Below are positions 13,905 to 55,772 of a stretch of 64,000 nt of DNA, in pieces. The stretch comes from Methanomassiliicoccaceae archaeon. Lineage in GTDB: Archaea; Thermoplasmatota; Thermoplasmata; Methanomassiliicoccales; UBA472. A program made the position numbers and the translations under genes. The notes below the pieces were generated by a model. The model had not been told where the DNA came from. It saw only the letters and a list, made by a program, of their open reading frames with translations, and searched no databases. The first letter of the stretch is position 1. Every line of letters starts with the position of its first letter. Where the stretch lies: assembly GCA_963806355.1 (NCBI GenBank), contig CAWDXN010000002.1, positions 51,326-115,325 on the forward strand, read 5' to 3'.

Positions 13905-13936
13905 CGACCAGTTCCATTCAAGATGAGGCGTTTGCG

Positions 13937-26832: not shown

Positions 26833-28119
<1,287 letters not shown>

Positions 28120-38733: not shown

Positions 38734-39960
38734 TCAGAAGACGCGCGTGTCTGGACCGATGTTCCCCCGGGCCAGGGTGCCCATGCCGATGGTGCACCGT
38801 TCCCAGATGATGGTGCCCGGTTCGATCATGCTGTTGATGCCGGTCTTGACGTCATCGCCCATGATCACGCCCAGCTTCCTCAGTCCGGTGTCGATGAGCT
38901 CGTCGCGGAACGTGACCTTGATGCTGCGGTTGTCGAAACGGAGGTTGGCCACCTTGGTGCCCGCGCCGAAGTTGCACCGCTCCCCGATCACGCTGTCACC
39001 CACGTAGTTGTGGTGGGGGATGTGGGTCCCGGCCATGACGATGCTGTTCTTCACCTCGACGGACGCCCCGATCTTGACCTTCTCCGCCAGGCTGGTCGCC
39101 GGTCGGATATAGCAGTTCGGGCCGACCTCGCAGCCCTTGGATATGTACACCGGTCCTTGGACATAGGCACCGCTGCGCACCACCGCCCCCTCCTCCACCA
39201 CCACGTTCCCTTTCAGGACCGCCCCCTCCTCCACCTCGCCCCGGATGTCGCGCTGGACCTCCGACATCAGGATCTCGTTGGCCTTGAGCAGGTCCCAGGG
39301 CCGCCCCACATCCATCCAGTAGCCTTCCAGACGTTGGACCACCAGGTCGTTGGAGGCGGCGAACAGGTTGAGCGTGTCGGTTATCTCGAACTCCCCGCGG
39401 GGGGACCTCTCGGTCCTGCGGATGTAAGGGAAGATCTCTGGGGTGAGGATGAACATGCCCGCGTTGATCAGATCGCCCGGGGGGTCCTTGGGCTTCTCGA
39501 CGATGCGTGCCATGCGGCCCTCCCTCTCATCGATGACACCGAAGCGGGAAGGGTCCTGCACGCGGACGGCGCATATCATCGCCTTGCGCTCCCTGCGGTA
39601 GCGGTCCACCGCCGCCTTGATGTCCTGTCTCGATAGGAGCACGTCCCCGTTGAGGCATACGAACTCCTCATCGATGTGACCCTCGGCGATCCCGATGGCG
39701 TTCGCCGTCCCCAAGCGCTCCTTCTGCTCCAGGAAGTTGATGTTCAGGCCCAGGCTCGAGCCGTCGCCATAATGCTCCTTGATGCGGTTGGCCTTCCAGC
39801 CCACTAGGATGGTGATGTCCTCCACCCCGGCCGAGCGCAGCGATTCCATGAGGTGGGTCAGGTACGGTTTGCCTGCCAACGTCAGCAGTGGCTTCGGTAT
39901 GTTGGAGGTGAGCGGTCTGAGCCTGGTCCCCTCTCCCGCGGCAAGGATGAACGCCTTCAT
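38734..39960 (-). CDS. Bifunctional sugar-1-phosphate nucleotidyltransferase/acetyltransferase (archaeal GlmU-like)
   Basis: Reads MKAFILAAGEGTRLRPLTSNIPKPLL, then GTANAI, GYWMDVGRPWDLL, and a long C-terminal hexapeptide-repeat domain. Its ATG overlaps the glmM stop (ATGA). The first 104 codons of ORF 38734-40272 are discounted. Confidence 0.85.
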   Translation of the reverse strand: MKAFILAAGEGTRLRPLTSNIPKPLLTLAGKPYLTHLMESLRSAGVEDITILVGWKANRIKEHYGDGSSLGLNINFLEQKERLGTANAIGIAEGHIDEEFVCLNGDVLLSRQDIKAAVDRYRRERKAMICAVRVQDPSRFGVIDEREGRMARIVEKPKDPPGDLINAGMFILTPEIFPYIRRTERSPRGEFEITDTLNLFAASNDLVVQRLEGYWMDVGRPWDLLKANEILMSEVQRDIRGEVEEGAVLKGNVVVEEGAVVRSGAYVQGPVYISKGCEVGPNCYIRPATSLAEKVKIGASVEVKNSIVMAGTHIPHHNYVGDSVIGERCNFGAGTKVANLRFDNRSIKVTFRDELIDTGLRKLGVIMGDDVKTGINSMIEPGTIIWERCTIGMGTLARGNIGPDTRVF

Positions 39961-41264
39961 TTCAGGCACCTCTTCACGATGCCCCTGCCCAGGTTCATGA
40001 GGCGGTCCAGCTCCTCCTTGTTCCTGGCCTCGGCGTTGACGCGGACCTTGGGCTCGGTCCCGGAGAGCCTGACCAGGAACCAACCGTCCTGGTACTCCGC
40101 GCGCCAGCCGTCCACGGTGATGAGGCGGTTGCACTTGAGGTTGGCCATCTCGCCCCCGATCTTGCCGCGGACTATGTCCCTCTCCTGGGATTGGAACATG
40201 AAAGACTCCCGGGCGGAGGGATATGAAGGCAAGGCGTCGACCAGCTCGGAGAGGCGGTTCTCCGACACACATTTGGCCAGAAGGGCCGCGGCGTACACGC
40301 CGTCCGGACAGTAGGTCTGCCGGGGGAAGATGAAGGTGCCCGATGGCTCGCCTCCGAAGGGGAAGCTGCTCTTCTTGAGCGCCTCCGCCACGTAGACATC
40401 GCCCACCTTGGTGCGGACCACGTTGCCCTCGACCATGTCGTCCAATACCATCGAGGCGTCGATCGGCGCCACGATGCCGTCCGCCTCGACCAGCGAGGCG
40501 AACAAGGCCAGCAACCGGTCCCCGTCGATGAAGCGGCCGTTCTCGTCCATGGCCACCATGCGGTCGCCGTCGCCGTCGTGGGCGATGCCCAGGTCCGCGC
40601 TCTTGGCCAACACGGCGTGGCGCAGGTCGCCCAACTGTTCCTCGGTCGGTTCAGGCAGTCGACCGGGGAAGTATCCGTCGGGCTGGGCGTTCAGGCTGAG
40701 CACGCTGCAGCCCATCTCGCGCAGGAGGATGGGGGTGATGGTGGTGGTGGCCCCGCAGCCGCAGTCCACCACCACGTTGACATGGCATTGGCCCAGGGAC
40801 CGTATCACCTCTTGGATGTGGTCATGGATGGCGCCGGCGTAATGGCTCTGCTGCCCCACCTTCCTCCAGCCAGGCATGGTCTTGGAGGGTTCGGTGATGA
40901 GGCTCTCCACCTCGTCCATCTGTCGGCTGTCGAACGCGCTCCCGTCCGGGTTCCACATCTTCACGCCGTTGTATTCTGCTGGATTGTGAGAGGCGGTGAC
41001 CATCAGACCGCAGCTATGGCCGAAGGCGGCCCTGGCCAAGGTCGGCGTGGAGACCATGCCGGTCAGGTGCACGTCCGCTCCAGAGGCCATGGCCCCTGCT
41101 GCCAACGCGCTCTCCATCATATCGCTGCTGGTCCGGCAGTCCTTGCCGATGATGACGTCTTTGTAAAGCTGCCCCACCGCGATCCCGATCCTGAGGGCGA
41201 GGTCCGCTGTGATCTCGCGGCCCACCACCCCGCGGATCCCTGACGATCCGAACAACGAAGTCAT
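39957..41264 (-). CDS. glmM: Phosphoglucosamine mutase (phosphohexose mutase family)
   Basis: Motifs: MTSLFGSSGIRG, TASHNPAEYNGVK, HDGDGDRM, GGEPSG, RLSGTEPKVRV. A TATA-like element (forward catatattct at 41291-41300) argues for the Met at 41264 rather than the ORF-track start at 41351. Confidence 0.85.
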   Translation of the reverse strand: MTSLFGSSGIRGVVGREITADLALRIGIAVGQLYKDVIIGKDCRTSSDMMESALAAGAMASGADVHLTGMVSTPTLARAAFGHSCGLMVTASHNPAEYNGVKMWNPDGSAFDSRQMDEVESLITEPSKTMPGWRKVGQQSHYAGAIHDHIQEVIRSLGQCHVNVVVDCGCGATTTITPILLREMGCSVLSLNAQPDGYFPGRLPEPTEEQLGDLRHAVLAKSADLGIAHDGDGDRMVAMDENGRFIDGDRLLALFASLVEADGIVAPIDASMVLDDMVEGNVVRTKVGDVYVAEALKKSSFPFGGEPSGTFIFPRQTYCPDGVYAAALLAKCVSENRLSELVDALPSYPSARESFMFQSQERDIVRGKIGGEMANLKCNRLITVDGWRAEYQDGWFLVRLSGTEPKVRVNAEARNKEELDRLMNLGRGIVKRCLK

Positions 41265-41522
41265 TTCCAGCGCGGTCATTGACATCAGCCCATATATTCT
41301 TAGCGTGCCGGTATGGAGAAAAAATGTCTTAACTGGAGCATTATCCAGCATAAATTTCTATGGGGGTAAAAAATAAATTAAAAATCAATCGTTAATCCGA
41401 CAAAATCTGGCTCTCTTGACCGAAAAAATGGTTTATTTTATAAGTAAAATAAGTGCTGGTCAGTGAGCATTATCAGATAAATATTATATATTAGTAAAGT
41501 TCATTACAATCTGGACATAAGG

Positions 41523-41534: not shown

Positions 41535-41558
41535 TCTATGAATGGATGGTGATAGCAC

Positions 41559-41786
41559 ATGGTGATGGAACAGATTAGCCTGGACAAGGCGAAGGAGATT
41601 GCCAAGAAGAAGGGCCTTAAGCCCGGACGCGTCAAGGGCACCAACGGTGTTCAATTCACAAAGGGAAACAACCCGAGGCTCGAGATCGTCGATTGGAACG
41701 AGTTCGAGAAGACCCTGAACAAGAGGTCCCTGGCCGTCTACGAGTCCGGCGGCTGGATGAAGATCATGAAGAAGGCCGGCAAGTAA
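41559..41786 (+). CDS. Hypothetical small basic protein (75 aa)
   Basis: Intact ORF MVMEQISLDKAKEIAKKKGLKPGRVKGTNGVQFTKGNNPRLEIVDWNEFEKTL... It is protein-like but has no motif I recognise. Confidence 0.45.
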   Translation: MVMEQISLDKAKEIAKKKGLKPGRVKGTNGVQFTKGNNPRLEIVDWNEFEKTLNKRSLAVYESGGWMKIMKKAGK

Positions 41787-41875: not shown

Positions 41876-43456
41876 CTACCATATGCCCTTATCGACCTCG
41901 ACGTCGGTGACCAAGGCCCTTCCGTATGCCTTCTGGAAGGCCTTGTCGTCCGCCTCGACCCCCCAGCACTCCAATTGGCACTCCCCCTTGGAAAGGATGC
42001 GGAGCACCGCCCGTTCCTTGGTGGCCCGAATGAAGCCAGTGCCCTCGACCATGCCCACGTGGCTGCGGTCCAGGCTCTCCGCGATGCGCAAAAGGGCGGA
42101 AAGCTTGGAGATGGTCTCCTGGGCGTTGCGGTCCAGTCCGTCCATCTCCGGGTCATTGTTCCTTGGGACCTTCTTGCGATGGAACTTGGCTATGTTGGCG
42201 ATCACCGAGGTCTCCTTCTGGTCGAAGCCCAACAGCTCGGAGTTGATTATGATGTAATAGGAGTGGAGGTGATGGTTGTTGAAGGAGATGAAATCGCCAA
42301 TGTCATGAAGGAAGGCAGCGTGCGAGAGCATCTCCCTCTCCCAACCGCCGAAGGCATGCAGCTTCACCATCCGGGCGGAATCGAAGAGCTGCAGCGCCAG
42401 GCGTTGCACGGTGCGAGCATGGTCCTCGTCCATGTCGCAGCTGCGGGCCAATTGCAGCACGCTTCTCTCCCTCACGTTGACCGTGTCCGAGTCCGGCAGC
42501 AGTCCGATCTCCCCCAGGTATTCCATGAAGAGCCCGTCCCTCAACCCTCGCTCGCTCACCACGACCTCATCGATGCCCAACTCGTCCATCAGCGTCTCCA
42601 GCGTGGCCGCGCCTCCGATGATGATGTCCGCCCTTTCCGGGTTCATCCCGGGAACGGCCCTTCGCTTCTCCAGGCTCAGTGAGCGGAGGTGGGCGGAGAG
42701 CTTCTTGAGGTGGGTGCGACGCAGACGGAGCGGTTGCATCTCTTCAAGGTCGAACATCAGGACGGCAATCTGGGCCAGGTTGATGGCGGTGCCTGAGGAT
42801 GCCACCGTGACCGAGATCTTGTGCTCGGCCACCTCCTTCTTGGTGCGGATGATGGCGGCCCTGACGTACTTGCGCATCTTGTCATACATGGCATCGGGTA
42901 TCGGTCCCGTGTGCCCCTCGGGGACGAAGAGGGTGGTCATGCGGATGGCGCCCAGCTTCAGGCTGTCGAGGTAGTGGTATTGCTTCTGGTCCCCGATGAC
43001 GACCTCGCAGCTGCCCCCGCCGATATCGACGAAGAGTCCCTTCTTCTTGCCCAGGTGCTGCCCGCTCGAGACGCCCATATAGATCAATCGGGCCTCCTCC
43101 CGACCGGAGATGACGCTCACATCCAGCCCCGCCCCCGATCTGATATGGTCGAGGAAATCCTGTTGGTTGGTGGCCTCACGCGCCGCCGAGGTGGCCACCG
43201 CGATGACGTGATCGGCCCGGAAGTTCTTGGCCAGCTCGGCGAACTTGCGGCACACCACCACCGCCCTGTCCATGGCGGCAGGCTTGAGCACGTTGTCCTT
43301 GAACTCCGATTCGCCGAGACGCACCACCTCCTTCTCTTGGCGCAGGACGGTGTAGGAGCCGTTGCTGTTGATGCGCACCACCAACAGGCGTATGGAGTTG
43401 GTCCCGATGTCAATGAACGCCGCCACGTGCGGCTTCCCATCCCAAGGCATCGTCAC
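41876..43456 (-). CDS. ppx: Exopolyphosphatase / GppA family (Ppx-GppA) with a C-terminal HD domain
   Basis: 526-aa intact ORF with AAFIDIGTNSIRLLVV, VIAVATSAAREA, FVDIGGGSCEV and C-terminal FLHDIGDFISFNNHHLHSYYII...KFHRK. The start (GTG 43456 or ATG 43450) overlaps the upstream stop. Confidence 0.9.
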   Translation of the reverse strand: MTMPWDGKPHVAAFIDIGTNSIRLLVVRINSNGSYTVLRQEKEVVRLGESEFKDNVLKPAAMDRAVVVCRKFAELAKNFRADHVIAVATSAAREATNQQDFLDHIRSGAGLDVSVISGREEARLIYMGVSSGQHLGKKKGLFVDIGGGSCEVVIGDQKQYHYLDSLKLGAIRMTTLFVPEGHTGPIPDAMYDKMRKYVRAAIIRTKKEVAEHKISVTVASSGTAINLAQIAVLMFDLEEMQPLRLRRTHLKKLSAHLRSLSLEKRRAVPGMNPERADIIIGGAATLETLMDELGIDEVVVSERGLRDGLFMEYLGEIGLLPDSDTVNVRERSVLQLARSCDMDEDHARTVQRLALQLFDSARMVKLHAFGGWEREMLSHAAFLHDIGDFISFNNHHLHSYYIIINSELLGFDQKETSVIANIAKFHRKKVPRNNDPEMDGLDRNAQETISKLSALLRIAESLDRSHVGMVEGTGFIRATKERAVLRILSKGECQLECWGVEADDKAFQKAYGRALVTDVEVDKGIW

Positions 43457-45717
43457 TGTATAGCCAATCGTCTATCAAAAGCCTTCTCCAGCAGTTTCCC
43501 TTTCTTCCTTCCCGCCTCGATCTCGTAGCGGTGGGACAGGGGGTCCTCGACCTCGATGATGATGACGTGGGGGTCGGCCCAACAACCGACGACCCGGACA
43601 TCGTGGGCATGCCTGACGTCCAATCCGTCCGCCACCCTCAATATGCCCGCCAGGACGTCGACCGTTCTGCGCTCCCTCTTGTTCAGGACCTTGTAGTTGC
43701 CATGGTCTTCCTTGGGCAGCCCCTTGCGATGGTAACGGGTCAGGCTGGCCACGATCAATCGCTCCCTCTCGTCCAAGGGCAGATGGTGGTCTGACATGAC
43801 CAGGTTGAAGGAGGCGAGGTTGTGGTCGATGCCGCTCTGGGACCAGCCGATGTCATGCAGCAACGCCCCGCATTCCAGCCAATAGCGCTCCTGGGCGCCA
43901 AGGCCGTGCTCCCCCTGGAGATGGTCGAAGAGCTGCAGCGCGGTGCCTCGCACGAAGAGCGAATGACCGTCCAGGTGGCCAAAGCGTCGGGCCTCCCCCT
44001 CCACCAGCTCCACTTTCTTGGCCATCTCGAGATCGGATTGGGCGTGGACCTTCTCCTCCGGCTCATCGGTCCCGCGGCCGGCCAGGTACATCTGGGCCAA
44101 CTTCTTAGGCAATCCCACGGCGACGATACGGTCCGCCACCTCCTTCAGGTCGTATTGGACGCGAACGAACTCGACCAGCAGGCTCTGCGCGTCCAACAGC
44201 ACGTAGGAGGCGCGCGGGTCACCTCCCACGGGTCGGCCCACGCTCCCCGGGTTGAGGAAGCGCATATCCCCCACGGCCAAGTCCATGCAGCGATGGGTGT
44301 GGCCCAGCACCACCACGTCGGCTTCGGCGACCTTGGCTAACGTTTCCAATCGTTCCGGGTCGGTGCTCTCGGTGACAGGTTCCAAGATCGAGGCCGGGCT
44401 GGCATGGGTGATGAGGAACCTCTTGCCCCCCATCTCGAAGCGGACCTCCTCAGGAAGGCCCAGCAGGAAGGAGATGGACGCGTCGTTGAGGTTTTGGAGC
44501 GCATGCGTCGCCACCTTCCGTTTCAGACGATCGCCCCCTTGGTTCGGCGGCGCCCCTCCCATCCTTGCCGCCAATATCCCTTGGTCATAATTGCCTAGGA
44601 CAGTGATGATACTTGGATCGCGGAGGAACTGGACCACCTCGTTGTCGAACGGACCCCAGCCTATGCAGTCCCCCGCGTTGATGAATACCTCCGCCCCCCG
44701 TTCCGCCGCGTCCTCCATCACCGCCTCCAAGGCGGGCAGGTTGCCGTGCACATCGGCGATCAACGCGATCTTCGCCGAAGGGGACAGGCCTGAGAGGTCG
44801 ATGCGCTTCGACCGTGGCCGTATGGCGGCGAGAAGGTCGGTCTCAAGCGCCCTCAGGAGACCGTTCCCTTCCCAATCCCTCCACATGGTCACCAACTGAC
44901 CGTACAACGACGATCGGGTCGTCTGGCGGTCCTGGAGCAACGCCGCCACCGCCGGCCCGCAACGCCACCGCAATCGTTCCAACAAGGCCTCGATCCAAAC
45001 ATCACAGTCGTGCATCTCCCCCAGGATATCCTGGAGCTTCTTGAGGCGGGAGATGTACTGCTTCAGACCATCCTCGTAGGCGGGGGCGAAGGTCTCCAAG
45101 GTATAACGTAGCCACTTGGCGGCTATGCGCATCTGGTGATGCCTCAGCACTGCCTTCTCGTCGGCCACACAATCTGAGAAGGCGAGCAGCTCCTTGCGGC
45201 GCACCACGACCTGGCCCAGGGCAGCGGTCCGCACATCCTGCCACATGAGCTCGTCCAGGGGCAAGGCCTTGGACTGAAGCAGGGCATGCCATCCAGGGAT
45301 GAGCCCCTCTTCCTCGAACTTCACCAGGGCCTCCTCCACATCGGGCTGGACGGCCGCCCTTCTCCCGACCAGCTCCTGGAGCAGGACGTCAAGCTCCGCT
45401 TTGGAGGCCTCGTCCTTGGAGGCCATGTACTTGCCCAGCAGCAGGATCTGCACGTCCAGGTCCCGGGCCGCGCCTAACGAGCGGGTCACGGCCTTCACCC
45501 TCTTCATCCAGAGCTTGGCTTGCTCCTTCTGGAAGCAACCGTCGAAGATGGTCAGCGCGGCGCGAAGGCGGCGGGAATAGACCCGGGACTGATGTATGAA
45601 CTCGACTGGACCTTCCCCAGAGGCACCCTGCAGTTGCTGATGCAGCGTCGTCAGATATTCATCGATGGCCTTGGCCCCGAAGGCCGTCATGCCGATGGTG
45701 CACTCACGGCTCGCCAT
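43453..45717 (-). CDS. Three-domain protein: CHAD + calcineurin-like metallophosphoesterase (YfcE/MJ0936-type) + HD domain
   Basis: 754-aa intact ORF. CHAD helices: FIHQSRVYSRRLRAAL, HHQMRIAAKWLRYTLETF, LQDILGEMHDCDVW. Metallophosphoesterase motifs: IALIADVHGN, NAGDCIGWG, LGNYDQ, LITHASP, VLGHTHR. HD domain: GALLHDIGW...RYHRKGLP, paralogous to the Ppx C-terminus. Confidence 0.8.
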   Translation of the reverse strand: MASRECTIGMTAFGAKAIDEYLTTLHQQLQGASGEGPVEFIHQSRVYSRRLRAALTIFDGCFQKEQAKLWMKRVKAVTRSLGAARDLDVQILLLGKYMASKDEASKAELDVLLQELVGRRAAVQPDVEEALVKFEEEGLIPGWHALLQSKALPLDELMWQDVRTAALGQVVVRRKELLAFSDCVADEKAVLRHHQMRIAAKWLRYTLETFAPAYEDGLKQYISRLKKLQDILGEMHDCDVWIEALLERLRWRCGPAVAALLQDRQTTRSSLYGQLVTMWRDWEGNGLLRALETDLLAAIRPRSKRIDLSGLSPSAKIALIADVHGNLPALEAVMEDAAERGAEVFINAGDCIGWGPFDNEVVQFLRDPSIITVLGNYDQGILAARMGGAPPNQGGDRLKRKVATHALQNLNDASISFLLGLPEEVRFEMGGKRFLITHASPASILEPVTESTDPERLETLAKVAEADVVVLGHTHRCMDLAVGDMRFLNPGSVGRPVGGDPRASYVLLDAQSLLVEFVRVQYDLKEVADRIVAVGLPKKLAQMYLAGRGTDEPEEKVHAQSDLEMAKKVELVEGEARRFGHLDGHSLFVRGTALQLFDHLQGEHGLGAQERYWLECGALLHDIGWSQSGIDHNLASFNLVMSDHHLPLDERERLIVASLTRYHRKGLPKEDHGNYKVLNKRERRTVDVLAGILRVADGLDVRHAHDVRVVGCWADPHVIIIEVEDPLSHRYEIEAGRKKGKLLEKAFDRRLAIQ

Positions 45718-47889
45718 GCCATTCCCCCCGGTGGTCTATCAGCCATTGCTGGGAATTCAATCTCTTGGCGCCTTCTTTCACTGGGACCGGACGATACGTG
45801 CCATCCGGCAACAGCTCCCTCGCCTTGGCATTGTCCTTGAAGTGGGTCTCCAACATCAGCTTCACAACGTTCTTCCGCAGTGTCGGGTCCGGTATGGGGA
45901 AGAGCACCTCCACCCGCTTGTTCAGGTTGCGGGGCATCATGTCGCTGCTGCCCAGGAGCACCTCCGGGTTGCCACCGTTGTTGAAGTAGTAGATGCGGGA
46001 GTGCTCCAGGAACCGGCCTACGATGGAGGAGACCTTGATGTTCTCGCTGATCCCCTTGAGCCCGGGACGAAGGGCGCACAGGCCGCGGACGTTGAGGTCG
46101 ACCTTGACGCCTGCCTGGGACGCCCGGTACAGGGCCTTGATGACCTCCTTGTCCAGCAGGGCGTTCAGCTTCCAGGCGATGTGGCCGTTCTTCTTGTCCT
46201 TGTGCCGCTCGATCTCGCGGTCGATGCGGCGGATGATCTCGCGGCGCAGCGAGTGCGGCGCCACGAGGAGCGTCTTGAAGTCCTCCTTGTGCGAATATCC
46301 GGTCAGAGCGTTGAAGAGGTCCTGCACGTCGGAGCCGATGTCCGGGTCGGCGGTGACGTAGCCGATGTCCCCGTACACCCGGGAGGTGACGGAGTTGTAG
46401 TTGCCGGAGCTGAGATGGGCGAATGCGCACGATGCCCTTCTGGGACCGCTTCACGATCAGGCACATCTTGGCGTGGACCTTCAGGTCCAACAGCCCGTAC
46501 ACCACATGCACGCCTGCCTGCTCCAGCATCTTCGCCCAGACGATGTTGTTCTCCTCGTCGAAGCGGGCCTTCAGCTCCACCAACGCCGCCACCTGCTTGT
46601 CGTTCTCCCGGGCCTGCATCAAGGCGTCGATTATGGGCGAATGCTTGTCGATGCGGTAGAGGGTGATCTTGATGGCCAGCACGTCCGGGTCCACCGCCGC
46701 TTGGCGCAGCATGTTCACCACGGTGCTGAAGTTGTCATAGGGATGATAGAGGACGTGGTCGCGCTGCTCCAGAGCGGTGAGCAACTTCTTCTCGTTGGCC
46801 AGCTCGCTGGGGATGAAGCCGGCGAAGGGCATGTCCTTGAGGTCGGGTCGGGCCAGGCCCAGCATCTACCAGAGGTCGACCAGCGCCAGAGGGCAGCTCT
46901 CCTCGTATACCAGGTATCCGGGCAACCCGAGCTTGTTGGCGAACATCTGCCTGAGCTTCTCGGGCATGGTGCTCTGCACCTCCAGACGGGAGGGCGCTCC
47001 GATGCGACGTTGTTCCACCCCCTCCTCGATGGCCGTGAGCAGGTCCTCTGCCTCGTCCAGCTCGATCTCGAAATCGGCGTCGCGGGTGATGCGGAAGGCA
47101 AAGGCCCCGGTGATGAGCATGCCAGGGAAGAGCAGGTCCAGGTTGGACATTATCACGTCCTCCAGGAACACCAAGTGGAAGGAAGTCGTCGACTTGTCCG
47201 GCTCAAATATCTCATTGGGTATGGTGATGAGGCGCTGCATGAGATTGACCGGTATCTTCACGCGGGCCAAGCGCTCCGCTCCCTGACCGTCCACCAACTG
47301 CACTGCCAGATTGATGCTCAGGTTGGATATGAACGGGAAGGGATGGGCCAGGTCCAAGGCCAAAGGGGTGAGGGCGGGGTAGATGGCGCTCTCGAAGTAG
47401 TCCCGCACCCATTGCTTCTGTTTGGGGGCGAGCTCCTTCACGTTGTGGATGTGGATGCCTGCTTGGGCCAGCTTGGGCAACGAGGTCGCTGAACCAGGTG
47501 GCGCAGTATTCCTCCAGGATGGGTTGCAGCTCGGACCGGATGGCCATGATCTGTTCCAGCGGCGTCATGCCGTCGGGAGGGGCTTCCAAAGCCCCGCGCA
47601 TCAGTTGACGCCTCAGACCGGACACGCGGATCATGAAGAACTCATCCAGGTTGCTGCCGCAGATGGCCAGGAACTTGACCCTTTCCAACAACGGATGGTT
47701 CACGTCCTGGGCCTCCTCGAAGATGCGTCGGTTGAAACGCACCCAGGCGATCTCCCGGTTGATGAAGTTGGTCGGGGCGTCAAGGAGCGAGCCATCATCA
47801 CCCGCGGGCCTCTTCTCCTTCTTCTCCTTCCTTACCTTCTTGTCCTTCTCCTTCCGGTCCTTAGGCGTCATTTGTTCTCCCCCGAACAA
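45704..47889 (-). CDS. ppk: Polyphosphate kinase 1; two frame breaks (about 47480 and 46424) and one in-frame TAG (46866-46868)
   Basis: Motifs: FINREIAWVRFNRRIFEEA, NLDEFFMIRV, LTPLALDLAHPFPFISNLS, RITRDADFEIE, LYHPYDNF, LVELKARFDEENNI, VHAKMCLIV, FAHLSSGNYN, FLEHSRIYYF. The start is TTG 47889 or ATG 47871. The stop overlaps the next gene by 14 nt. Confidence 0.9.
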
Positions 47890-48036
47890 TGGCAGTAACC
47901 ACTATGTCATTTTTATCATTTGATATGAAAAAGCAACACGATCGGGCCAGGAAAGAAATTTCGGAGCGGCTCTGGGAGGAAAAAGTCCATTTTCAATAGG
48001 TATTTGTACCACCAGGTTATTGTGTGGATTCCACAC

Positions 48037-48120
48037 GCAGGGATAGCCAAGCCTGGCCAACGGCGCTAGATTCAGGGTCTAGTCCTTAGTGGTCCAAGGG
48101 TTCAAATCCCTTTCCCTGCA
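48037..48120 (+). tRNA. tRNA-Leu (anticodon CAG), long variable arm, no encoded CCA
   Basis: Hand fold. Acceptor GCAGGGA/TCCCTGC, anticodon stem CTAGA/TCTAG, loop TTCAGGG, T-arm AAGGG-TTCAAAT-CCCTT, discriminator A. Confidence 0.88.
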
Positions 48121-48255
48121 CTCTCCTTTCTCCATCTCTAATGACAAAGGGCGACATTCGTTCCGATTTCCATACCCATCCGCTGTCATGATTCATCATA
48201 TATCCCTCTTACCGACATTCATACATGAGGATCGCCCAGGAAGGGAACAAGATAC

Positions 48256-48729
48256 ATGGAACTCAAGACCGTTGACCATGTGGACGTGCAAAGGTACATG
48301 GGTACCTGGTATGAGATCGCCAAGTTCCCACAAAGGTTCGAGAAAGGGATGGTCGGGATCACGGCCGAATATTCGCTGCTCCCGGACGGCAAGGTCCAGG
48401 TATTGAACCGCGGGTACAAAGGGGGCTTCAATGGCGAGTTGAAGACGATCAAAGGCAAGGCCTGGGTGGTCGATCCAAAGACGAACGCCAAATTGAAGGT
48501 GACCTTCTTCTGGCCTTTCGCGGGGAATTATTGGATACTGGAGCTGGGCAAGGATTACGAGTACGCCGTGGTGGGCGAGGCCTCCCGAAAATATCTATGG
48601 GTCCTTTCCCGGAGCCCTCAGATGGAGGGAGACGTTTACGATGGGATCATCGGACGCCTGAGGGAAAAGGGCTTTGATGTTTCCAAATTGGAAAAGAACC
48701 CTCAAAAGCCGGCAGAAAAGGCAACCTGA
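48256..48729 (+). CDS. blc: Bacterial-type lipocalin (Blc-like) without a signal peptide
   Basis: 157 aa with the lipocalin SCR1 motif YMGTWYEIAKFP, followed by EYAVVGEASRKYLWVLSR. It starts directly at the barrel. Confidence 0.85.
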   Translation: MELKTVDHVDVQRYMGTWYEIAKFPQRFEKGMVGITAEYSLLPDGKVQVLNRGYKGGFNGELKTIKGKAWVVDPKTNAKLKVTFFWPFAGNYWILELGKDYEYAVVGEASRKYLWVLSRSPQMEGDVYDGIIGRLREKGFDVSKLEKNPQKPAEKAT

Positions 48730-48750: not shown

Positions 48751-49929
48751 TCAACTCTCCATATGGCCGGTCCCCTCGACACCCTTATCCATGAACAAAA
48801 CGGTCTTTGAGGCCAGCCTTCCTGCGTCAAGGAACATCAAGGTGCCTAGCAGGGCAAGTCCGAACCCCACGATCCAGCTCCCCGGGATATCGAAGATCAC
48901 CTCACCCCCCTCCTGAGTGGAGAATCCCCCGGCCGCCATGATCGGTATGAATGCCAAGAAGGTACGGTAGAAGATACGTCGGTCCGTCACGGCCCAGGCG
49001 GACAACAGGATGCAGGGCAGCACGTAATAGCCATTATGCATCTTGGGGTAAACCACCAGGAAGACGAGCACAACTAGTGTGACGCTCTGCCACACCCCGA
49101 GCCTCCGCTTGTGACAGAAGAGGTAGGCGATCAGCAGCGAAACGAGCACCAAAGCCAGCTCCACCTCCTTGGGCAGTCCGTAACCGCCCACTCGCAGGAA
49201 GTGCCACATGCTTACCCCCCCGCTCTCCCGGCCGCTCACCCCCATCGTGTAGAACTCCAGGAAGAAGACGAAATCATCATAGCACGTCAGAGCAAAGTAG
49301 CCGATGGCGACGACGGTGACCAATGCGACGATGAGGAGGAGCAATGTGCGGTCCTTCCAGTTCCTCCAACGCAAGAACTCGATCGGAAGCAAGAGCACCG
49401 AGAACATCTTGGTCCAGATGCCCACACCGATGGCGAGGGCCGCTGGCAATTTGTAATTATAGAGCATGAGCAGGACAGCCCCAAAGAAGACGAACGCGAC
49501 GATGGCCTCGTCCTCAATAGCCACCGATTCGATGAGCAGGAAGGGGGTGATGACGGTCGCAAAGCCCACTTGGAAGGCCTTAACCTCGTTCCATCGCCTC
49601 AAAGAGAGATAGAGCATGATGGCGGTGATGCCTGCGAAGAAGGAGAAATAGAGGCCCCAAACCCATTCATGCTCGCCCCCTCCCATGAGCTGCGCCGGCA
49701 CCAACATGTAGTTGATGATCGGGGGCGTCTCCGTGCCAGTATCGCGATAGAGCAGGCCCCCGTCGATGATGGTCTGGGCCCTGGCCTGGTAAAGCTCAAG
49801 GTCGGGATGATGGACCGCCCCCTGGATGGCCAGGTCGACGGAGCTGTTGATGATCACACCCCCTCCGTAGATCAAAATGGTCAGCAGTATGAGGATGAGA
49901 AGCTTCCTGCGCACGCTCATCCTCAGCAC
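48751..49929 (-). CDS. Multi-pass membrane glycosyltransferase, DUF2029/GT87-like (GT-C type), copy 1
   Basis: 392-aa intact ORF with about 10 helices. The first loop reads YQARAQTIIDGGLLYRD...TPPIINY. It sits in a cluster with a GT2 polyprenyl-phosphate glycosyltransferase. Confidence 0.5.
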   Translation of the reverse strand: MLRMSVRRKLLILILLTILIYGGGVIINSSVDLAIQGAVHHPDLELYQARAQTIIDGGLLYRDTGTETPPIINYMLVPAQLMGGGEHEWVWGLYFSFFAGITAIMLYLSLRRWNEVKAFQVGFATVITPFLLIESVAIEDEAIVAFVFFGAVLLMLYNYKLPAALAIGVGIWTKMFSVLLLPIEFLRWRNWKDRTLLLLIVALVTVVAIGYFALTCYDDFVFFLEFYTMGVSGRESGGVSMWHFLRVGGYGLPKEVELALVLVSLLIAYLFCHKRRLGVWQSVTLVVLVFLVVYPKMHNGYYVLPCILLSAWAVTDRRIFYRTFLAFIPIMAAGGFSTQEGGEVIFDIPGSWIVGFGLALLGTLMFLDAGRLASKTVLFMDKGVEGTGHMES

Positions 49930-49958
49930 CCGCTCGTTGCATGAATCGATCAGCTGGT

Positions 49959-51215
49959 CTAGGGACGTGTCTCCACCTCCAGGCCCTTATCTGAGGGCCC
50001 ACTCTCCAGGAAAGTTCTCTGCGGAAGGGACAACCAAGCGGCGAGGATGAACAGCAGCGTCCCAGCGAGCGATAGGAACAGACCGATGATCCAGCTATCC
50101 TCGAATAGGTTGGAGATGGTCGAGTCCACATCGGGCAGGAACCCGGACGTCAGGCTCAGCGGGATGAAGGCGAGGTATGGCAGGACGGCCACGCGCCAAT
50201 CCCTCGCCCCCCAGACAGTCAGGAGCACGGTGGGCAGGATGTAGTAGCCCATGTGCATCTTCGGGTAGAAGACGATGAAGACCACCACTACCAGGGTCAC
50301 GCTCTGCCACACCCCCATGCGCTTCCAGTAGGCGAAAAGGTAGGCCGCAAGGAGGGAGCCCAGGACCAGAGCCAGCTCCAACGCCTCCGGCAACCCGTAG
50401 CCACCGACGCTGCAGGAAGTTCCACACGCTCAGGCCCCCGCTGGACCGCTCCGGGTCGCCGAGGAAGTAGAACTCCAAGAATTCCAGGAACTCCTCGGGG
50501 CAGAGGATGAGGAAAGGTACCGTCACGATCAGGGTGACCGCGACGACGATGACCACCAGCTCCCACGTTCCCTCCAGGTGGGCAAGCGAAGGAACTGGGT
50601 GGGAAGAAGCAGGACCGACCACATCTTGGTCCAGATGCCCGATGACGATGGCGAGGGCGGCGTAGCGGTTCGAGCTTCAGCAGCATCAGCAGCACGCGCG
50701 GTGAAGAAGACGAAGGCCACCAACGCCCCATCTTCCCCGATGTGGGTCTCATCGATGAGGAAGGGGCACAACAAGGCCAGGAACGCGACCTGGAATGCGC
50801 GGACATCATCGTAACGGCGCAGCACCAAGTACAGCATCATGGAGAGGAGGAAGGCAAAGGCCGTCTGATAGGCGGCCCACACCCAGTAGTGCTCCGCCCC
50901 GCCCAGCACCTGGGCTGGCACCAGGAAGTAGTTGATCAGCGGCGGGGTCTCTGTGTGCACGTCGCGATAGAGCAGTTCCCCGTCCAAAATGGCCTGGGTG
51001 CGAGCTCGGTAGATGTCAATGTCATATGAGGCGGTCGGATCGGCGATCCAGGTATCGGCGATCATTACCCCGTAGACGATTATGGCGATGACCAGAAGGA
51101 ACAGGACCTTTCTCCGGGGGCTCCATCCGCGGACAGGCTTGAGGACATCATCGATCAACTTATCGATGCGACTCCGTGGACCATCCGGTTGGTCGGTCAT
51201 ATGCCCACTCTCCAA
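49959..51215 (-). CDS. Multi-pass membrane glycosyltransferase, DUF2029/GT87-like, copy 2 (tandem paralogue); about 6 frame breaks within 50390-50720
   Basis: It is collinear with copy 1 (YRARTQAILDGELLYRD...TPPLINY; GIWTKMWSVLLLPTQFL; FLEFLEFYFLG; VWQSVTLVVVVFIVFYPKMH). The pieces lie in ORFs 50529-51215, 50297-50809, 50095-50622 and 49959-50393. Confidence 0.5.
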
Positions 51216-51234
51216 TCATCCACCTCTGTGACCA

Positions 51235-51957
51235 TCACTTCCTCTTCCGCATCGCCTTGATCTCTTCCTTGTGGTCCCGTTTGAACTTGTTATAATCGCC
51301 CAGGGTGATGAAGGGCACGGTGTAGAACTTGATATAGGACTTACCACTGGGCCTGGCGTAGTGCACGATGGGTATCTCGGCGATCCTCATGCCCTTCAGC
51401 GAGGCCAAGGGGAGGATGAAGCGGTGCAGGCCCCGGTATCCCTCCGGGTCGAAGCCCATGGCCACGGCCTTGTCGCGACGGAAGGCCTTGAAACCGCTGT
51501 TCTGGTCCTTCACGTCCAGTCCGAACTTCCTCTGGATGATCCAACGGTTGTAGGTCCGGGAGATCAGCTTACGAACATAGGGATCGGTGCGCTGACTGCG
51601 CCACCCCGTGACGACATCATAGCCCTCGTCCATCTTGGTCAGGAATAGCGGGATCTCCTTCGGTTCGTACTGTCGGTCGCCGTCCATGATGATGGCGATG
51701 TCGCCTCGCGCCTCCTTGAACCCGGTGCGGATGGCGTAGGAACGCCCTAGGTTGGTGGGATGATGCACCGCCCGAACCTCTTGGTGTTGCTTGGCCAGTT
51801 CATCGCAGACCTGGGGGGAGCGGTCCTCAGAACCGTCGTCCACCAGGAGCACCTCGCCGTCGATGCGGTTGTCCTTATAGACGGCCAGGATGTCCTCGGT
51901 CAAAGGCGCGATGTTGTCTTGCTCGTTCTTTATCAGAAGGATGGTGGTGCATCTCAA
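51235..51957 (-). CDS. GT2 polyprenyl-phosphate glycosyltransferase (dolichyl-phosphate mannose/glucose synthase-like)
   Basis: 240-aa intact ORF with LLVDDGSEDRS, GRSYAIRTGFKEARGDIAIIMDGDRQYEP, YDVVTGWR. Confidence 0.8.
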   Translation of the reverse strand: MRCTTILLIKNEQDNIAPLTEDILAVYKDNRIDGEVLLVDDGSEDRSPQVCDELAKQHQEVRAVHHPTNLGRSYAIRTGFKEARGDIAIIMDGDRQYEPKEIPLFLTKMDEGYDVVTGWRSQRTDPYVRKLISRTYNRWIIQRKFGLDVKDQNSGFKAFRRDKAVAMGFDPEGYRGLHRFILPLASLKGMRIAEIPIVHYARPSGKSYIKFYTVPFITLGDYNKFKRDHKEEIKAMRKRK

Positions 51958-52000
51958 GGTAAGACCTCGTTATGATCACTTTTCAACGGGGGCGAGGGAC

Positions 52001-52999
52001 CTAGGAGGTCCTGCGCGCGCGTTCATAATAAGCCAAGGCGATCAAGCTTATGGGGACCGACAGCCAGATCGAGGTCATGGCGCTTAGCAGACCGGCGGTC
52101 GCCGCCACGGACGGGTCCAATCCGCTGGCCGTGAATATGGCCGATGATATCAGGATGTTGCTGCTGCCCGCCGAGAGCACGATGCTGCTCAGCGATACCA
52201 AGCTGACCGTGGCTATGACGGCCAGCAGGGTCACCTCCGCTCCCAGCGCGACGATGATGAGATAGAGGCGCGCTATCTCGATGGTCCAGATGACCAAGGT
52301 CAAAGCGCCGGCATAGGCCAGGTTACTCTTGCTGTTCCTCGACTGGGGGCTCAAGGCCTGCGCGAAGGAGGTGGTGAAACCGGTCATGTACTTGGCCAAC
52401 TTCTCCCCCTTGGCGCCCAGACCAAGTCTTTTCATAACATCCGCCCCCCAGTTGCCCAAACGCAGGGCCAGGGCAGGGTGGGCCAGGACGTAGATGAAGA
52501 CGATGTTGGCCACCACCATCGCCGCCACCACCAGCACCAGCTGGGTCCTCGTCTCGCCCACGAAATAGGTGAGGAGAGCGGCTAGGCTGGTCACGGCCAA
52601 GGCGGTGACCACCAGTAGGTCCATCACGCGCTCCGTGACCACCGTGGCCAGGCCACTGCCCACGCTCACCCCCTCGTTGTTCTTGATCTCGAATATGCGC
52701 GATGTCTCCCCCACCACCCGCCCCGGGATGATGTTGTTCAGCGCCTGGGAGAAGGTGAAGGCGGCAAATGTGGAGCGGAACGGCAACTTCTTGCCCGCAC
52801 CTTGGAGCAATACGCCCCACCGGTAGGCCTTCAGCACCAGACCGATGACGTAGAGGGCGATGACGACCAGGATCAGGGTGAGGTCCACCTGGTCCAACGT
52901 CTCCGCCACCTCGCTCGGACCGGCCAACCAAAGCACTGCCAGTATCAGGAATACTGAGATCCCCAATTTCACCTTGGTGCTGGTGCTCATCTTACGCAT
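52001..52999 (-). CDS. Flippase-like membrane protein (UPF0104 / LPG-synthase TM-region family)
   Basis: 332-aa intact ORF with 8 or more helices and the motif LKAYRWGVLL...FSQALNNIIPGRVGE-like segment. Confidence 0.6.
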   Translation of the reverse strand: MRKMSTSTKVKLGISVFLILAVLWLAGPSEVAETLDQVDLTLILVVIALYVIGLVLKAYRWGVLLQGAGKKLPFRSTFAAFTFSQALNNIIPGRVVGETSRIFEIKNNEGVSVGSGLATVVTERVMDLLVVTALAVTSLAALLTYFVGETRTQLVLVVAAMVVANIVFIYVLAHPALALRLGNWGADVMKRLGLGAKGEKLAKYMTGFTTSFAQALSPQSRNSKSNLAYAGALTLVIWTIEIARLYLIIVALGAEVTLLAVIATVSLVSLSSIVLSAGSSNILISSAIFTASGLDPSVAATAGLLSAMTSIWLSVPISLIALAYYERARRTS

Positions 53000-53245
53000 G
53001 CGAGCTGGCCCCCCGATCCTCCACCAATGAATGTACCATAGGTCTGGCCCAGATGGTTCTGATTGAATGATAGAGGAATATTACTAATTATCGATTTAGT
53101 TGGAAATGTCTATCCGATCGCGGAAATGACGCGCCATCCTCTGAGGCTTGGCCGAGAACCACAACCTCTCGATGTCCACCCATTCAACCCTCGAACCTCC
53201 AATGGCAATAATGGGTCGAAAGGCAAATTGAATTATAGTGGTCCT

Positions 53246-53262
53246 TCGAGTTTTAAACTCGA
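53246..53262. promoter_or_regulatory. Palindromic TATA-like element TCGAGTTTTAAACTCGA upstream of the sulfatase gene
   Basis: 8-bp arms flank a central T, and the core TTTTAAA resembles an archaeal TATA box. It lies 56 nt before the ATG at 53318. Confidence 0.35.
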
Positions 53263-53317
53263 CCTGTCCATCCCAATATCATGCACTGACAGGGATCACA
53301 TACAAGGGGATCCATTT

Positions 53318-55664
53318 ATGGGGAGATCGTTCAAAGGCAAGATCAACATCGATGTCAGGGATTCGGTCCCTGATTGGGAACCATTCAAAGAACCGGTCGC
53401 AAAGGACGGAGCGCCGAATGTGCTGTTCATCGTCTGGGACGACGTGGGATTCGGGGCGTTCAGCTCCTTCGGCGGACTGATAGACACGCCGAACATGGAC
53501 CGCTTGGCCAACAACGGCCTTCGTTACACCCAGTTCCACACCACCGCGCTCTGCTCGCCTACCCGGGCCACCTTGATCACGGGCCGGAACCATACCACGG
53601 TGGGTATGGCATGCATCACCGAGGGGACCACCGGTTTCCCGGGCTCGTGCGGGCGCATCCCGCCCGAAACCGCCACCCTGGCCGAGGTGCTCGTGGAAAG
53701 GGGATACAACACCTTTGCCGTGGGGAAGTGGCACCTCACCCCGGAGGAGGAGAGCACCACAGCCTCCTCGAAGAGGAACTGGCCCTTGAGCCGTGGCTTC
53801 GACAGGTTCTATGGGTTCATGGGAGGGGAGGCGTCCCAATGGTACCCCGACCTGGTCTATGACAACCATGTGGTGGAGCAACCCTACCTCCCCAAGGACG
53901 GATACCATCTGAGCAAGGACCTGGTGGACAAGGCCATCCGCTTCGTCAGGGATTCGAAGCAGATAGCCCCGTCGAAACCGTTCTTCCTCTACTTCTGTCC
54001 AGGGGCCGGGCACGCTCCCCACCATGTACCGAAGGAGTGGGCGGACCGTTACAAGGGCAAGTTCGACATGGGCTACGAGCTCTATCGGGAGATCACCGCT
54101 AAGAGACAGAAGGAGATGGGCATCCTACCGAAGGGCACAGAACTTGCCGCGATCAACACAATGGTCGATGAGGTCAGCGCCAAGGGGGTCAAATGGCCAG
54201 CGCTGGACGTGATCCCGGAATGGGGCTCGTTGTCCAAAGAGGAGAAGGAACTGTTCAACCGGATGGCCGAGGTGTATGCTGGCTTCGTAAGCTATACCGA
54301 CCATGAGATCGGACGGATGATCGACTATCTCGGAGGAATCCGGGGAGCTGGACAACACATTGGTGGTGGTGATCTCCGATAATGGGGCCAGCGGCGAGGG
54401 CGGTCCCAACGGCTCGGTCAATGAGAACCTGTTCTTCAATGGCATGCCGGACAAGCTGGAGGACAACCTGAGGATGTTGGACAAACTGGGCGGTGAGGAC
54501 ACCTACAACCACTACCCCGCCGGTTGGGCCGAGGCGTTCTGCGCGCCCTTCAAGATGTACAAGCGCTACGCGGCCTGGAGCGGTGGCACATGCGATCCCC
54601 TGATAATCTCCTGGCCAAAAGGCATCAAGGCGAGGGGGATAAGGCACCAGTACCATCACGTCGTCGACATAGTGCCTACCATACTGGAGTGTCTCTCTTT
54701 GGAGATGCCAGAACATGTGAAGGGTTTCTCCCAGAAGCCCTTGGAAGGGGTCAGCATAAAATACAGCTTTGAAAACGAGAAGGCCCCCACGCAGAAGACC
54801 ACCCAATACTACAACATGCTGGGGAGCAGAGGCATCTGGCATGATGGCTGGAAGGCATCGACCGTGCATCCGACCATCGCCGGATGGGGCAACTATGCCA
54901 AGGACCGATGGGAGCTTTTCCATGTGGACGAGGACCGGGCGGAGGTGAACGATCTGGCCGGGAAATATCCGGAAAAGCTGACCGAGCTGGTCCAACAATG
55001 GTTCGTGGAGGCGGGCAAGACCAACGGCCTCCCGCTCGACGATCGATTCCCGATGGAGATAATGATGTCGCCCCGTCCCCAACCCGCCAAGGACAGGACG
55101 CGGTATGTCTATTATCCAGATACGGAAGGTGTTCCGGAATCGGTCGCCCCGAACATGCGCAACCGTTCCTATAAGATCGGAGCCCTACTGGACATACCCG
55201 CCGGGGGTGCTAGCGGCATCATATTCCAGATGGGGTCGAAGTTCGGAGGCCACGCCCTTTACGTAAAGGACGGGAGGCTGAACTATGTCTACAACTTCCT
55301 GGGCATGAAGGTCCAGACCATCACCTCGACCGAGAGCTTGCACCCTGGAAAGAACATCATCGTCGCGGCCACCTTCGACAAGGACGACACCGGGCCAAAG
55401 GTAGGGATACCCCATGGTACCCTGACGCTATTCGTCAATGACAAGAAGGTCGGCGAGGGCAATATCCAGACCCAGCCGGGCAAGTTCGGGCTCGGGGGAT
55501 CCCTGGAGGTAGGTCGGGGGGCAGGCTCGGAGATAACGCCTGAGTTCCCTGGAGAGCGCCCTTGGAAGTTCACAGGGACCATAAGACGGGTGGTCATCGA
55601 CCTGAGCGGGGAATCATATCAGGACATCGAGAAGGAGGCGCAGAGGGCGCTACGGACCATGTGA
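53318..55664 (+). CDS. Cys-type arylsulfatase (formylglycine-dependent sulfatase family), about 780 aa, no signal peptide; one frame break near 54355
   Basis: Motifs: NVLFIVWDDVGFG, signature TTALCSPTRATLITGRNHT, GKWHL, then VVVISDNGASGEG and a long C-terminal beta-domain. ORFs 53063-54382 and 54360-55664 join by a +1 step. Confidence 0.88.
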
Positions 55665-55772
55665 TGGGAGGGTCCCCTCGAGAACATCGCCATAACGCGC
55701 TTTCGCCACGCATCAAACCCTCGTCCATAGCGATGAGGGCATCTCCTCCTTCCCAAAAAGAAGGTCATATGT

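Follow-up and report, generated by a model that had tools for sequence, protein, structure and literature searches.

The window analysed here is a stretch of 64,000 nucleotides (nt) of contig CAWDXN010000002.1 from a Methanomassiliicoccaceae archaeon. Within positions 41876–47889 it holds three co-directional coding regions on the minus strand, which specify polyphosphate kinase 1 (PPK1), a protein of 754 amino acids (aa) with three domains, and an exopolyphosphatase of the PPX/GppA family. A first-pass annotation, made from the letters alone, had described a minus-strand trio with overlapping stop and start codons, and both overlaps, of 14 nt (45704–45717) and 4 nt (43453–43456), are borne out. 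The features of the locus are given below; related loci are referred to by L numbers.

41876..43456, minus strand: PPX/GppA-family exopolyphosphatase gene (PPX), 526 aa, intact, with a TAG stop (Pfam matches and motifs in the translation)
43453..43456, minus strand: 4-nt overlap GTGA of the middle gene and PPX, read from the window sequence; a −4 overlap occurs in many relatives
43453..45717, minus strand: middle gene, 754 aa, intact, encoding a CHAD domain, a metallophosphoesterase domain and a PPX-type C-terminal domain
45704..45717, minus strand: 14-nt overlap of PPK1 and the middle gene, read from the window sequence and kept in L001, L002, L003 and L006
45704..47871, minus strand: PPK1 coding region, recognised by Pfam matches on four successive open reading frame (ORF) pieces
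47872..47960, minus strand: non-coding region 5′ of PPK1; contains the A+T-rich sequence catatcaaatgataaaaatg and, ahead of the ATG, GGGGGAG

The PPK1 stop codon TGA (45706–45704) falls 14 nt inside the middle gene, whose ATG is at 45717 and which has a GGGGGG run directly 5′ of this ATG and overlap. At the second junction, the middle-gene stop TGA (43455–43453) overlaps a GTG at 43456; the other possible PPX start is an ATG at 43450, 2 nt past the stop. PPK1 had been thought to begin at TTG 47889, but the start called in relatives corresponds to ATG 47871, which has GGGGGAG 6–12 nt upstream. The region at 47872–47960 is probably the promoter and ribosome-binding site of the operon. A promoter and terminator scan of the window gave nothing above shuffled expectation, with a sigma-70 consensus that is not applicable to archaea.

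Both overlaps are present in L001, L002 and L003. In addition, L006 keeps the −14 and L005 the −4 overlap, the other junction in each being obscured by frame breaks. The conserved overlaps fit co-translation of the operon genes. In the window itself PPK1 is interrupted three times, so that the first gene, as written, is not translatable through to the junction.

Conservation of the cluster in archaea

A protein search returned at least 487 homologues of the 754-aa protein. All 120 that were listed have the CHAD, metallophosphoesterase and Ppx-GppA_III domains, and 119 of them are 720–850 aa long, the remaining one being a 571-aa fragment; among the matches listed, named homologues belong to Methanomassiliicoccales, Thermoplasmata and Bathyarchaeia. 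In a scan at the DNA level, species-representative genomes yielded at least 546 stretches that code for a protein related to the middle one. From such genomes 74 loci were retrieved, and gene order was analysed in 75 loci. The first-pass annotation had named the lack of this gene order in relatives as a finding that would speak against it; in the survey the order was kept, PPK1 being the next gene upstream of the middle gene in 69 of the 75 loci and a close PPX the next one downstream in 58. Most of the loci that deviate are either short contigs or second, paralogous copies of the middle gene. A few loci, those of Methanolliviera (L013/L014) and L024, L076 and L017, have PPK1 and the fused gene with no adjacent PPX. 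Measured from a stop codon, the alignment to the following gene sets in at −17 to +50 nt in almost every locus and, since the alignments begin 8–12 residues into the protein, the true starts lie at the preceding stop or overlap it. The cluster occurs as a conserved unit in two archaeal phyla, its carriers being Methanomassiliicoccales, other Thermoplasmatota, Bathyarchaeia and Methanolliviera.

The 526-aa ORF of the third gene matches Ppx-GppA (2e-62, residues 26–314) and Ppx-GppA_III (7.2e-33) in Pfam, and the translation shows the DIGTNS, SGREEA and DIGGGS motifs of ASKHA-type domains I–II. With the NCBIfam exopolyphosphatase model TIGR03706 the protein scores 287.1, slightly short of the cut-off (307), and PPX versus GppA specificity is not readable from the sequence. 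Catalytic motifs are kept in all three operon genes.

We read the locus as a conserved archaeal polyphosphate operon in which ppk1 is followed by the gene of the CHAD-metallophosphoesterase-PPX C-terminal domain protein and then by ppx, and we take the PPK1 lesions of this particular sequence to be most likely assembly errors. We put the probability of this reading at about 0.6.

Two further features of the surveyed loci deserve mention. In many Bathyarchaeia a second CHAD-metallophosphoesterase-PPX gene lies a few kb from the first and has no PPK1 flank (L007, L020, L021, L025, L032–L034, L041, L045, L063 and L067). Three contigs with the archaeal-type cluster, L017, L034 and L061, are filed under Candidatus Acidoferrum, Limnocylindrales and Nanoarchaeia bins, probably through mis-binning rather than transfer.

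The fused middle protein and its possible function

That the middle ORF would match CHAD, metallophosphoesterase and HD-type profiles had been predicted, and the Pfam search agrees: CHAD 2.6e-45, Metallophos_2 2.7e-24, Metallophos 2.2e-14, Ppx-GppA_III 1.1e-09 and HD 4e-05. The coding sequence divides as follows.

44821..45696, minus strand: CHAD domain, about aa 8–299, all-helical, of the polyphosphate-binding type (Pfam PF05235)
44119..44811, minus strand: metallophosphoesterase domain, about aa 303–533, of the YfcE/SapH-like branch (motifs, TIGR00040 and PDB matches)
43456..44043, minus strand: PPX-type C-terminal module, about aa 559–754, consisting of HD-like domain III and a small β domain (Pfam, profile and fold)

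No NCBIfam model was found that covers the entire protein, and the sole match is to TIGR00040, the model of the YfcE subfamily (score 69.8, cut-off 56.25). An AlphaFold2 model built on 22 diverse family members has a mean predicted local distance difference test score (pLDDT) of 89.5 and a predicted TM-score (pTM) of 0.75. Every catalytic motif of the protein is intact, and the residues called invariant below are so in 22 diverse members.

The CHAD match covers positions 2–227 of the 228 in the profile. This part of the model is all-helical with pLDDT of about 90; its sequence matches PDB entries 3e0s and 6qv7, and its fold matches 6qv7 and 6qva (CHAD domain bound to polyphosphate). Invariant residues include R45, R49, R50, R52, R85, H194, R197, K201 and R204. 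Polyphosphate binding by CHAD domains has been demonstrated, as has their localisation to polyphosphate granules (PMC6537752), and stand-alone CHAD genes are frequent in polyphosphate operons (PMC6537752, PMC12995831).

The metallophosphoesterase domain has a complete and invariant set of metal ligands: D322-x-H324, G349-D350, G375-N376-x-D378, H438 and G472-H473-x-H475. Its best PDB matches are 3rqz (1.7e-39), SapH (3qfm/3qfn, 5.8e-29) and the archaeal structures 1nnw and 2gju. Fold comparison gives a TM-score of 0.83–0.84 to SapH and 1nnw, normalised to target length; with SapH itself the E-value of 5.8e-29 and the TM-score of 0.83 go together with an identity of just 25%. SapH (Spr1479 of Streptococcus pneumoniae) and the archaeal proteins of the PF1291/PH1004 type are thus the nearest matches of the core and have the same two-metal motifs (PDB 3qfm, 1nnw, 2gju and 3rqz; E-values 1e-22 to 1e-39; target-normalised TM-scores 0.74–0.84). 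They differ from the middle protein in being single-domain proteins of about 250 aa that lack polyphosphate-binding modules, and they are 24–28% identical to its core. According to the title of its PDB entry, SapH is an asymmetric diadenosine tetraphosphate (Ap4A) hydrolase and phosphodiesterase; it acts on phosphoanhydride bonds of Ap4A and ATP.

The last ~200 aa match domains III–IV of bacterial PPX/GppA proteins (8jgo, 1u6z, 2flo, 3rf0 and 6pbz) in both sequence and fold. The family profile matches residues 331–493 of Deinococcus radiodurans PPX (8jgo) at 1.1e-28, with the motifs RYHRK and LRVADGLD in common; the TM-score to the C-terminal fragment of Yersinia pestis PPX (3rf0) is 0.72–0.74; and identity to the C-terminus of the neighbouring PPX is about 30%. 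The module comes after the ASKHA catalytic domains in PPX and after the metallophosphoesterase in the middle protein. The first-pass annotation took the HD module for a second type of hydrolase. It is specifically the PPX C-terminal domain, which in PPX binds polyphosphate, and it does not clearly qualify as a hydrolase of a second type; as cited in PMC6537752, the C-terminal portion of E. coli PPX serves as a polyphosphate-binding probe. The H...HD...D set of the module (H585, H621-D622 and D697) is invariant, and the family has HD (LHDIG) at the position of HE in D. radiodurans PPX.

How does this arrangement compare with known systems? The E. coli ppk-ppx operon (Akiyama, Crooke and Kornberg 1993, as cited in PMC6537752) likewise joins a PPK1-type kinase and a PPX/GppA-family exopolyphosphatase in the same direction. 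Unlike that operon, the archaeal one has the 754-aa three-domain gene inserted between the two and overlapping stops and starts. CHAD proteins of granules and operons (Iyer and Aravind 2002; Tumlirsch and Jendrossek 2017; Lorenzo-Orts 2019, PMC6537752) are likewise encoded beside polyphosphate enzymes, as is the CHAD protein of the Sulfolobus ppx-sixA-PPK3-CHAD operon (PMC12995831). However, known CHAD proteins either stand alone or are fused to CYTH/TTM domains, whereas here CHAD has a metallophosphoesterase and a PPX C-terminal domain as its fusion partners. The arrangement had been put forward as uncharacterised. For the fused enzyme this still holds, as a literature search combining CHAD with metallophosphoesterase or calcineurin-like terms found no description of the fusion in searchable papers; CHAD proteins in polyphosphate operons, on the other hand, were already known (PMC6537752, PMC12995831).

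Because the middle protein has a polyphosphate-binding module on either side of a SapH-like phosphoanhydride hydrolase core, we propose it as a candidate polyphosphate-targeted polyphosphatase. In the scheme we envisage, PPK1 would make polyphosphate from ATP, and the middle protein would be held on the polymer at both ends, by the N-terminal CHAD and the C-terminal PPX-type domain. Its SapH/YfcE-like two-metal centre would hydrolyse phosphoanhydride bonds, either cutting internally and making new ends or acting as a second exo-enzyme of a non-ASKHA type. PPX would then trim the polyphosphate ends to phosphate, and one transcript with coupled translation would keep the ratio of synthesis to breakdown fixed.

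Endo versus exo cleavage is not decidable from the sequence. Yeast Ppn1 and Ppn2 belong to the calcineurin-like metallophosphoesterase superfamily, a fold that can cut polyphosphate internally, and by this analogy an endo activity of the middle protein is plausible. The two yeast proteins, named as endopolyphosphatases (PMC6537752), are vacuolar eukaryotic enzymes of other subfamilies with neither a CHAD nor a PPX-type domain, and have only the superfamily in common with the middle protein. In a 2019 survey, no archaeon turned out to have an endopolyphosphatase homologue (Paula et al., PMC6864096). It is a tentative idea, which we hold to be somewhat less probable than its negation, that the fused family is a new prokaryotic class of polyphosphatase, maybe the missing archaeal endopolyphosphatase, clamped to the polymer and produced at a fixed ratio with PPK1 and PPX.

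The main rival on the function of the middle protein has it sit on polyphosphate granules and hydrolyse Ap4A or other nucleoside polyphosphates, ATP or phosphodiesters, with polyphosphate serving as the address. The activity of SapH, the closest solved homologue with a known one (Ap4A/ATP hydrolase and phosphodiesterase), fits such a role, and so does the NCBIfam assignment to the YfcE phosphodiesterase subfamily. It accounts less well for a core flanked by two separate polyphosphate-binding modules, one of them borrowed from PPX, for the position between ppk1 and ppx in 58–69 of the 75 loci, and for L013, L014, L024 and L076, which have PPK1 and the fused gene with no adjacent PPX. We consider a nucleotide substrate rather unlikely.

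Archaeal polyphosphate breakdown is poorly understood. In Haloferax, a Mn/Co-dependent polyphosphate-degrading activity of unassigned origin is reported, and the authors argue for enzymes not yet known (2026, PMC13318637). The family, whose gene separates ppk1 from ppx in hundreds of genomes of archaea and whose metallophosphoesterase centre is intact, offers a concrete candidate polyphosphatase. Its carriers include abundant soil and sediment groups, e.g., Bathyarchaeia and Methanomassiliicoccales.

Interruptions of PPK1

PPK1 had been annotated as a single ORF at 45704–47889, whereas in this assembly the gene runs through three frames and an in-frame TAG. The ORF list and a three-frame translation resolve it into four pieces. 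PP_kinase_N lies in one frame (47871 to ~47483). The middle domain lies in a second frame, which ends at the TAG at 46868–46866, and the C1 domain resumes in the same frame past this codon; the rest of C1 and the C2 domain lie in the third frame (~46422 to 45704). Over the successive pieces the Pfam domains follow in order: PP_kinase_N 9e-32, PP_kinase 2e-59, C_1 4e-51 and C_2 4e-67 (family profiles PF13089, PF02503, PF17941 and PF13090; NCBIfam TIGR03705). Three lesions separate the pieces.

~47482, minus strand: lesion 1, one extra C in GACCT[C]GTTGCC, a +1 shift; absent in L001, L002, L003 and L005
46866..46868, minus strand: lesion 2, the in-frame TAG; relatives have TTG, TTG or CTG (Leu) or CAG (Gln)
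~46423, minus strand: lesion 3, one extra T in CGCA[T]TCGCC, a +1 shift; absent in L001, L002, L003 and L005

All three are private to the window in the alignment with relatives (L001/L004, L002, L003, L005, L006 and L077). The TAG codon aligns with a Met in the PPK structure 2o8r, and lesion 3 sits just before the conserved AHLSSGNYN motif. Deleting the extra C and the extra T gives a PPK1 of 721 aa, and PPK1 is intact at 721 aa in six relatives with 79–96% DNA identity (L001, L002, L003, L005, L006 and L077). The repaired protein aligns end to end with the PPK structures 2o8r (5.5e-124), 1xdo (1.4e-121) and 9uuh (E-values 1e-121 to 5e-124), the alignment covering residues 35–711. The motifs KVHAK and LEHSRI are kept and align with the same motifs in 2o8r; we take their histidines to be the equivalents of E. 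coli H435 and H592, catalytic residues of the PLD-like C-terminal domains. An E. coli PPK H435/H592 double mutant is catalytically impaired (PMC6537752). The intact PPK1 of L001, 97% identical, scores 816.9 with TIGR03705 against a cut-off of 465.85. In L077, a contig at 95–96% DNA identity with a 96%-identical PPK1, PPK1 is intact and the contig's own CHAD gene is broken. The source organism probably has a working PPK1.

The two insertions are, in our judgement, very probably errors of the assembly consensus and neither marks of a pseudogene nor recoding sites; for the TAG this is less certain, as it is a substitution. Breaks of the same kind run through the window. A codon-usage frame scan finds ~30 frameshift-like junctions, at which coding segments abut in different frames, and Pfam continuity proves that five genes are split.

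10521–10941: split ABC permease, by Pfam continuity across the frame change
12175–13231: split ABC ATPase with a TOBE domain, in five abutting segments in alternating frames, of which three match Pfam (ABC_tran 2–42, ABC_tran 80–124 and TOBE_2)
13288–13886: split DUF47/PhoU_div gene, profile positions 12–98, then 103–206
13925–15293: split phosphoglucomutase (PGM/PMM) paralogue, domains I–II, then III–IV
27134–28055: split Kae1/TsaD gene, profile positions 2–46, then 48–243

Kae1/TsaD is universal, so a genuine frameshift in it is implausible. Over the 16 kb comparable with relatives, window-private indels amount to 12 insertions against a single deletion, and five of the private indels cluster in ~300 nt of a GT87 gene. 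This paralogue (49959–51215, minus strand) is in four ORF pieces with five single-base indels at 50412–50696, and it is intact in L001, L005 and L002. Private frameshifts likewise occur in sister long-read metagenome-assembled genomes (MAGs), recognised by their Flye-style contig names: in the lipocalin and phosphoglucomutase genes of L001, the CHAD gene and PPX of L005, PPX of L006 and the CHAD gene of L077. PPK1 has private frameshifts in the MAGs L051, L055, L056 and L066. The Illumina MAG L003, in contrast, has zero private frameshifts in coding sequence. Claims that rest on intact or broken reading frames in this window therefore need read-level support, given its many single-base insertions.

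Could PPK1 be truly inactivated? It would then be a recent pseudogene, with the two hydrolases kept, e.g., for polyphosphate from another kinase or from uptake. Three independent lesions in the 2.2-kb PPK1 and none in the 3.9 kb of both downstream genes would fit such a history, as would the substitution to TAG. PPK1 has 13 synonymous and 7 non-synonymous substitutions private to the window, which gives a ratio of non-synonymous to synonymous rates (dN/dS) of 0.16, modestly raised over the 0.03–0.05 of sister lineages. This ratio is nevertheless far below 1, and on this ground we reject an old pseudogene. Similar single-base insertions break Kae1/TsaD and at least four other genes of the window; PPK1 is intact in all six relatives named above; and in other long-read MAGs random breaks fall in any of the three operon genes. 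Recent decay of PPK1 is therefore unlikely.

Deliberate decoding would have the TAG read as pyrrolysine and the two +1 shifts as programmed frameshifts. Methanomassiliicoccales carry a pyrrolysine system, the window comes from a Methanomassiliicoccaceae lineage, and both shifts are indeed +1. However, TAG ends ~10 of the 44 confident genes in the window (~23%), PPX included, and relatives encode Leu or Gln at the codon, so we reject pyrrolysine at this site. Programmed frameshifting is rejected as well: neither shift site has a slippery motif, no relative has the shifts, and dozens of unrelated genes in the window show similar ones. Recoding in either form is very unlikely.

Several points weigh against the operon as we read it, with a working PPK1 and a polyphosphate-cleaving middle protein. 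All three lesions are in PPK1 and the next 3.9 kb, comprising the middle gene and PPX, are clean; chance allows such clustering (P ~0.17 at the mean rate of the window), and so does real decay. The T-to-A substitution behind the TAG is atypical of errors in the window, and dN/dS in the window lineage exceeds that of its sisters. As to the middle family, polyphosphate is a putative substrate, proposed on the basis of domain architecture and gene neighbourhood. Enzymes of the SapH type act on nucleotides, and the HD-like domain, in which all four classical metal ligands are present, could itself be a catalytic site.

Surroundings of the operon

The operon starts next to a tRNA gene, as the first-pass annotation had pointed out and ARAGORN confirms.

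48037–48121, plus strand: tRNA-Leu(CAG), divergent from the operon

The same annotation thought it conceivable that the block had been acquired at this tRNA by horizontal transfer. The tRNA and a Blc-type lipocalin gene do adjoin the block, and archaeal PPK genes are thought to be bacterial in origin through several old transfers from bacteria (PMC12995831). A recent transfer nevertheless finds composition, synteny and taxonomy all against it. The operon shows no G+C anomaly (0.60–0.63, like the rest of the window), only the interval with the tRNA and the lipocalin gene being lower, at 0.555. The tRNA-Leu also stands beside PPK1 in L002, where it is 94% identical, and both this linkage and the operon are kept in relatives with just 79% DNA identity. 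Among the top 120 PPK1 relatives, down to 56% identity, all named entries belong to Methanomassiliicoccales or Thermoplasmatota/Euryarchaeota. Moreover, the segment that varies between close relatives is a glycosyltransferase block (48955–55779) on the other side of the tRNA. We therefore reject recent acquisition at the tRNA-Leu as very unlikely.

The variable block, of ~6.8 kb, adjoins the tRNA-Leu and lipocalin gene and has GT87, GT2 and LPG_synthase_TM-type genes. It is present in L001, L002, L003 and L005 and absent from the 95–96% identical L077, in which its flanks are adjacent. A GT87 gene at 48751–49929 (minus strand) is 95% identical, with no gaps, to L006:2215–3488, whereas the polyphosphate genes of L006 are ~79% identical; this likeness may reflect recent exchange or gene conversion between lineages. 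The lipocalin gene (48256–48729, plus strand; NCBIfam NF007786, 1.6e-41) belongs to the interval of lower G+C. Close relatives have it as well, in L001 with a frameshift, but L002 lacks it between the GT87 gene and the tRNA.

On the other side of the operon, a 75-aa ORF at 41556–41783 (plus strand) lies just past PPX on the opposite strand. It is conserved (L001:11931–12158 and L002:11939–12166), and no match to it was found in Pfam or NCBIfam. The phosphate-linked genes listed as lying nearby are all present; L001 has kept those for NAD kinase and inositol monophosphatase, and the DUF47/PhoU-like gene is frameshifted here. A pstSCAB operon at 8.3–13.2 kb is unsupported; the genes there are an NTP-transferase-like one and those of a generic ABC transporter that has a TOBE domain. 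After the polyphosphate operon comes a pair of phosphoglucomutase and NTP-transferase genes (38734–41351), which is mirrored elsewhere in the window by a second NTP-transferase/hexapeptide-like gene at 8410–9170 and the second phosphoglucomutase at 13925–15293.

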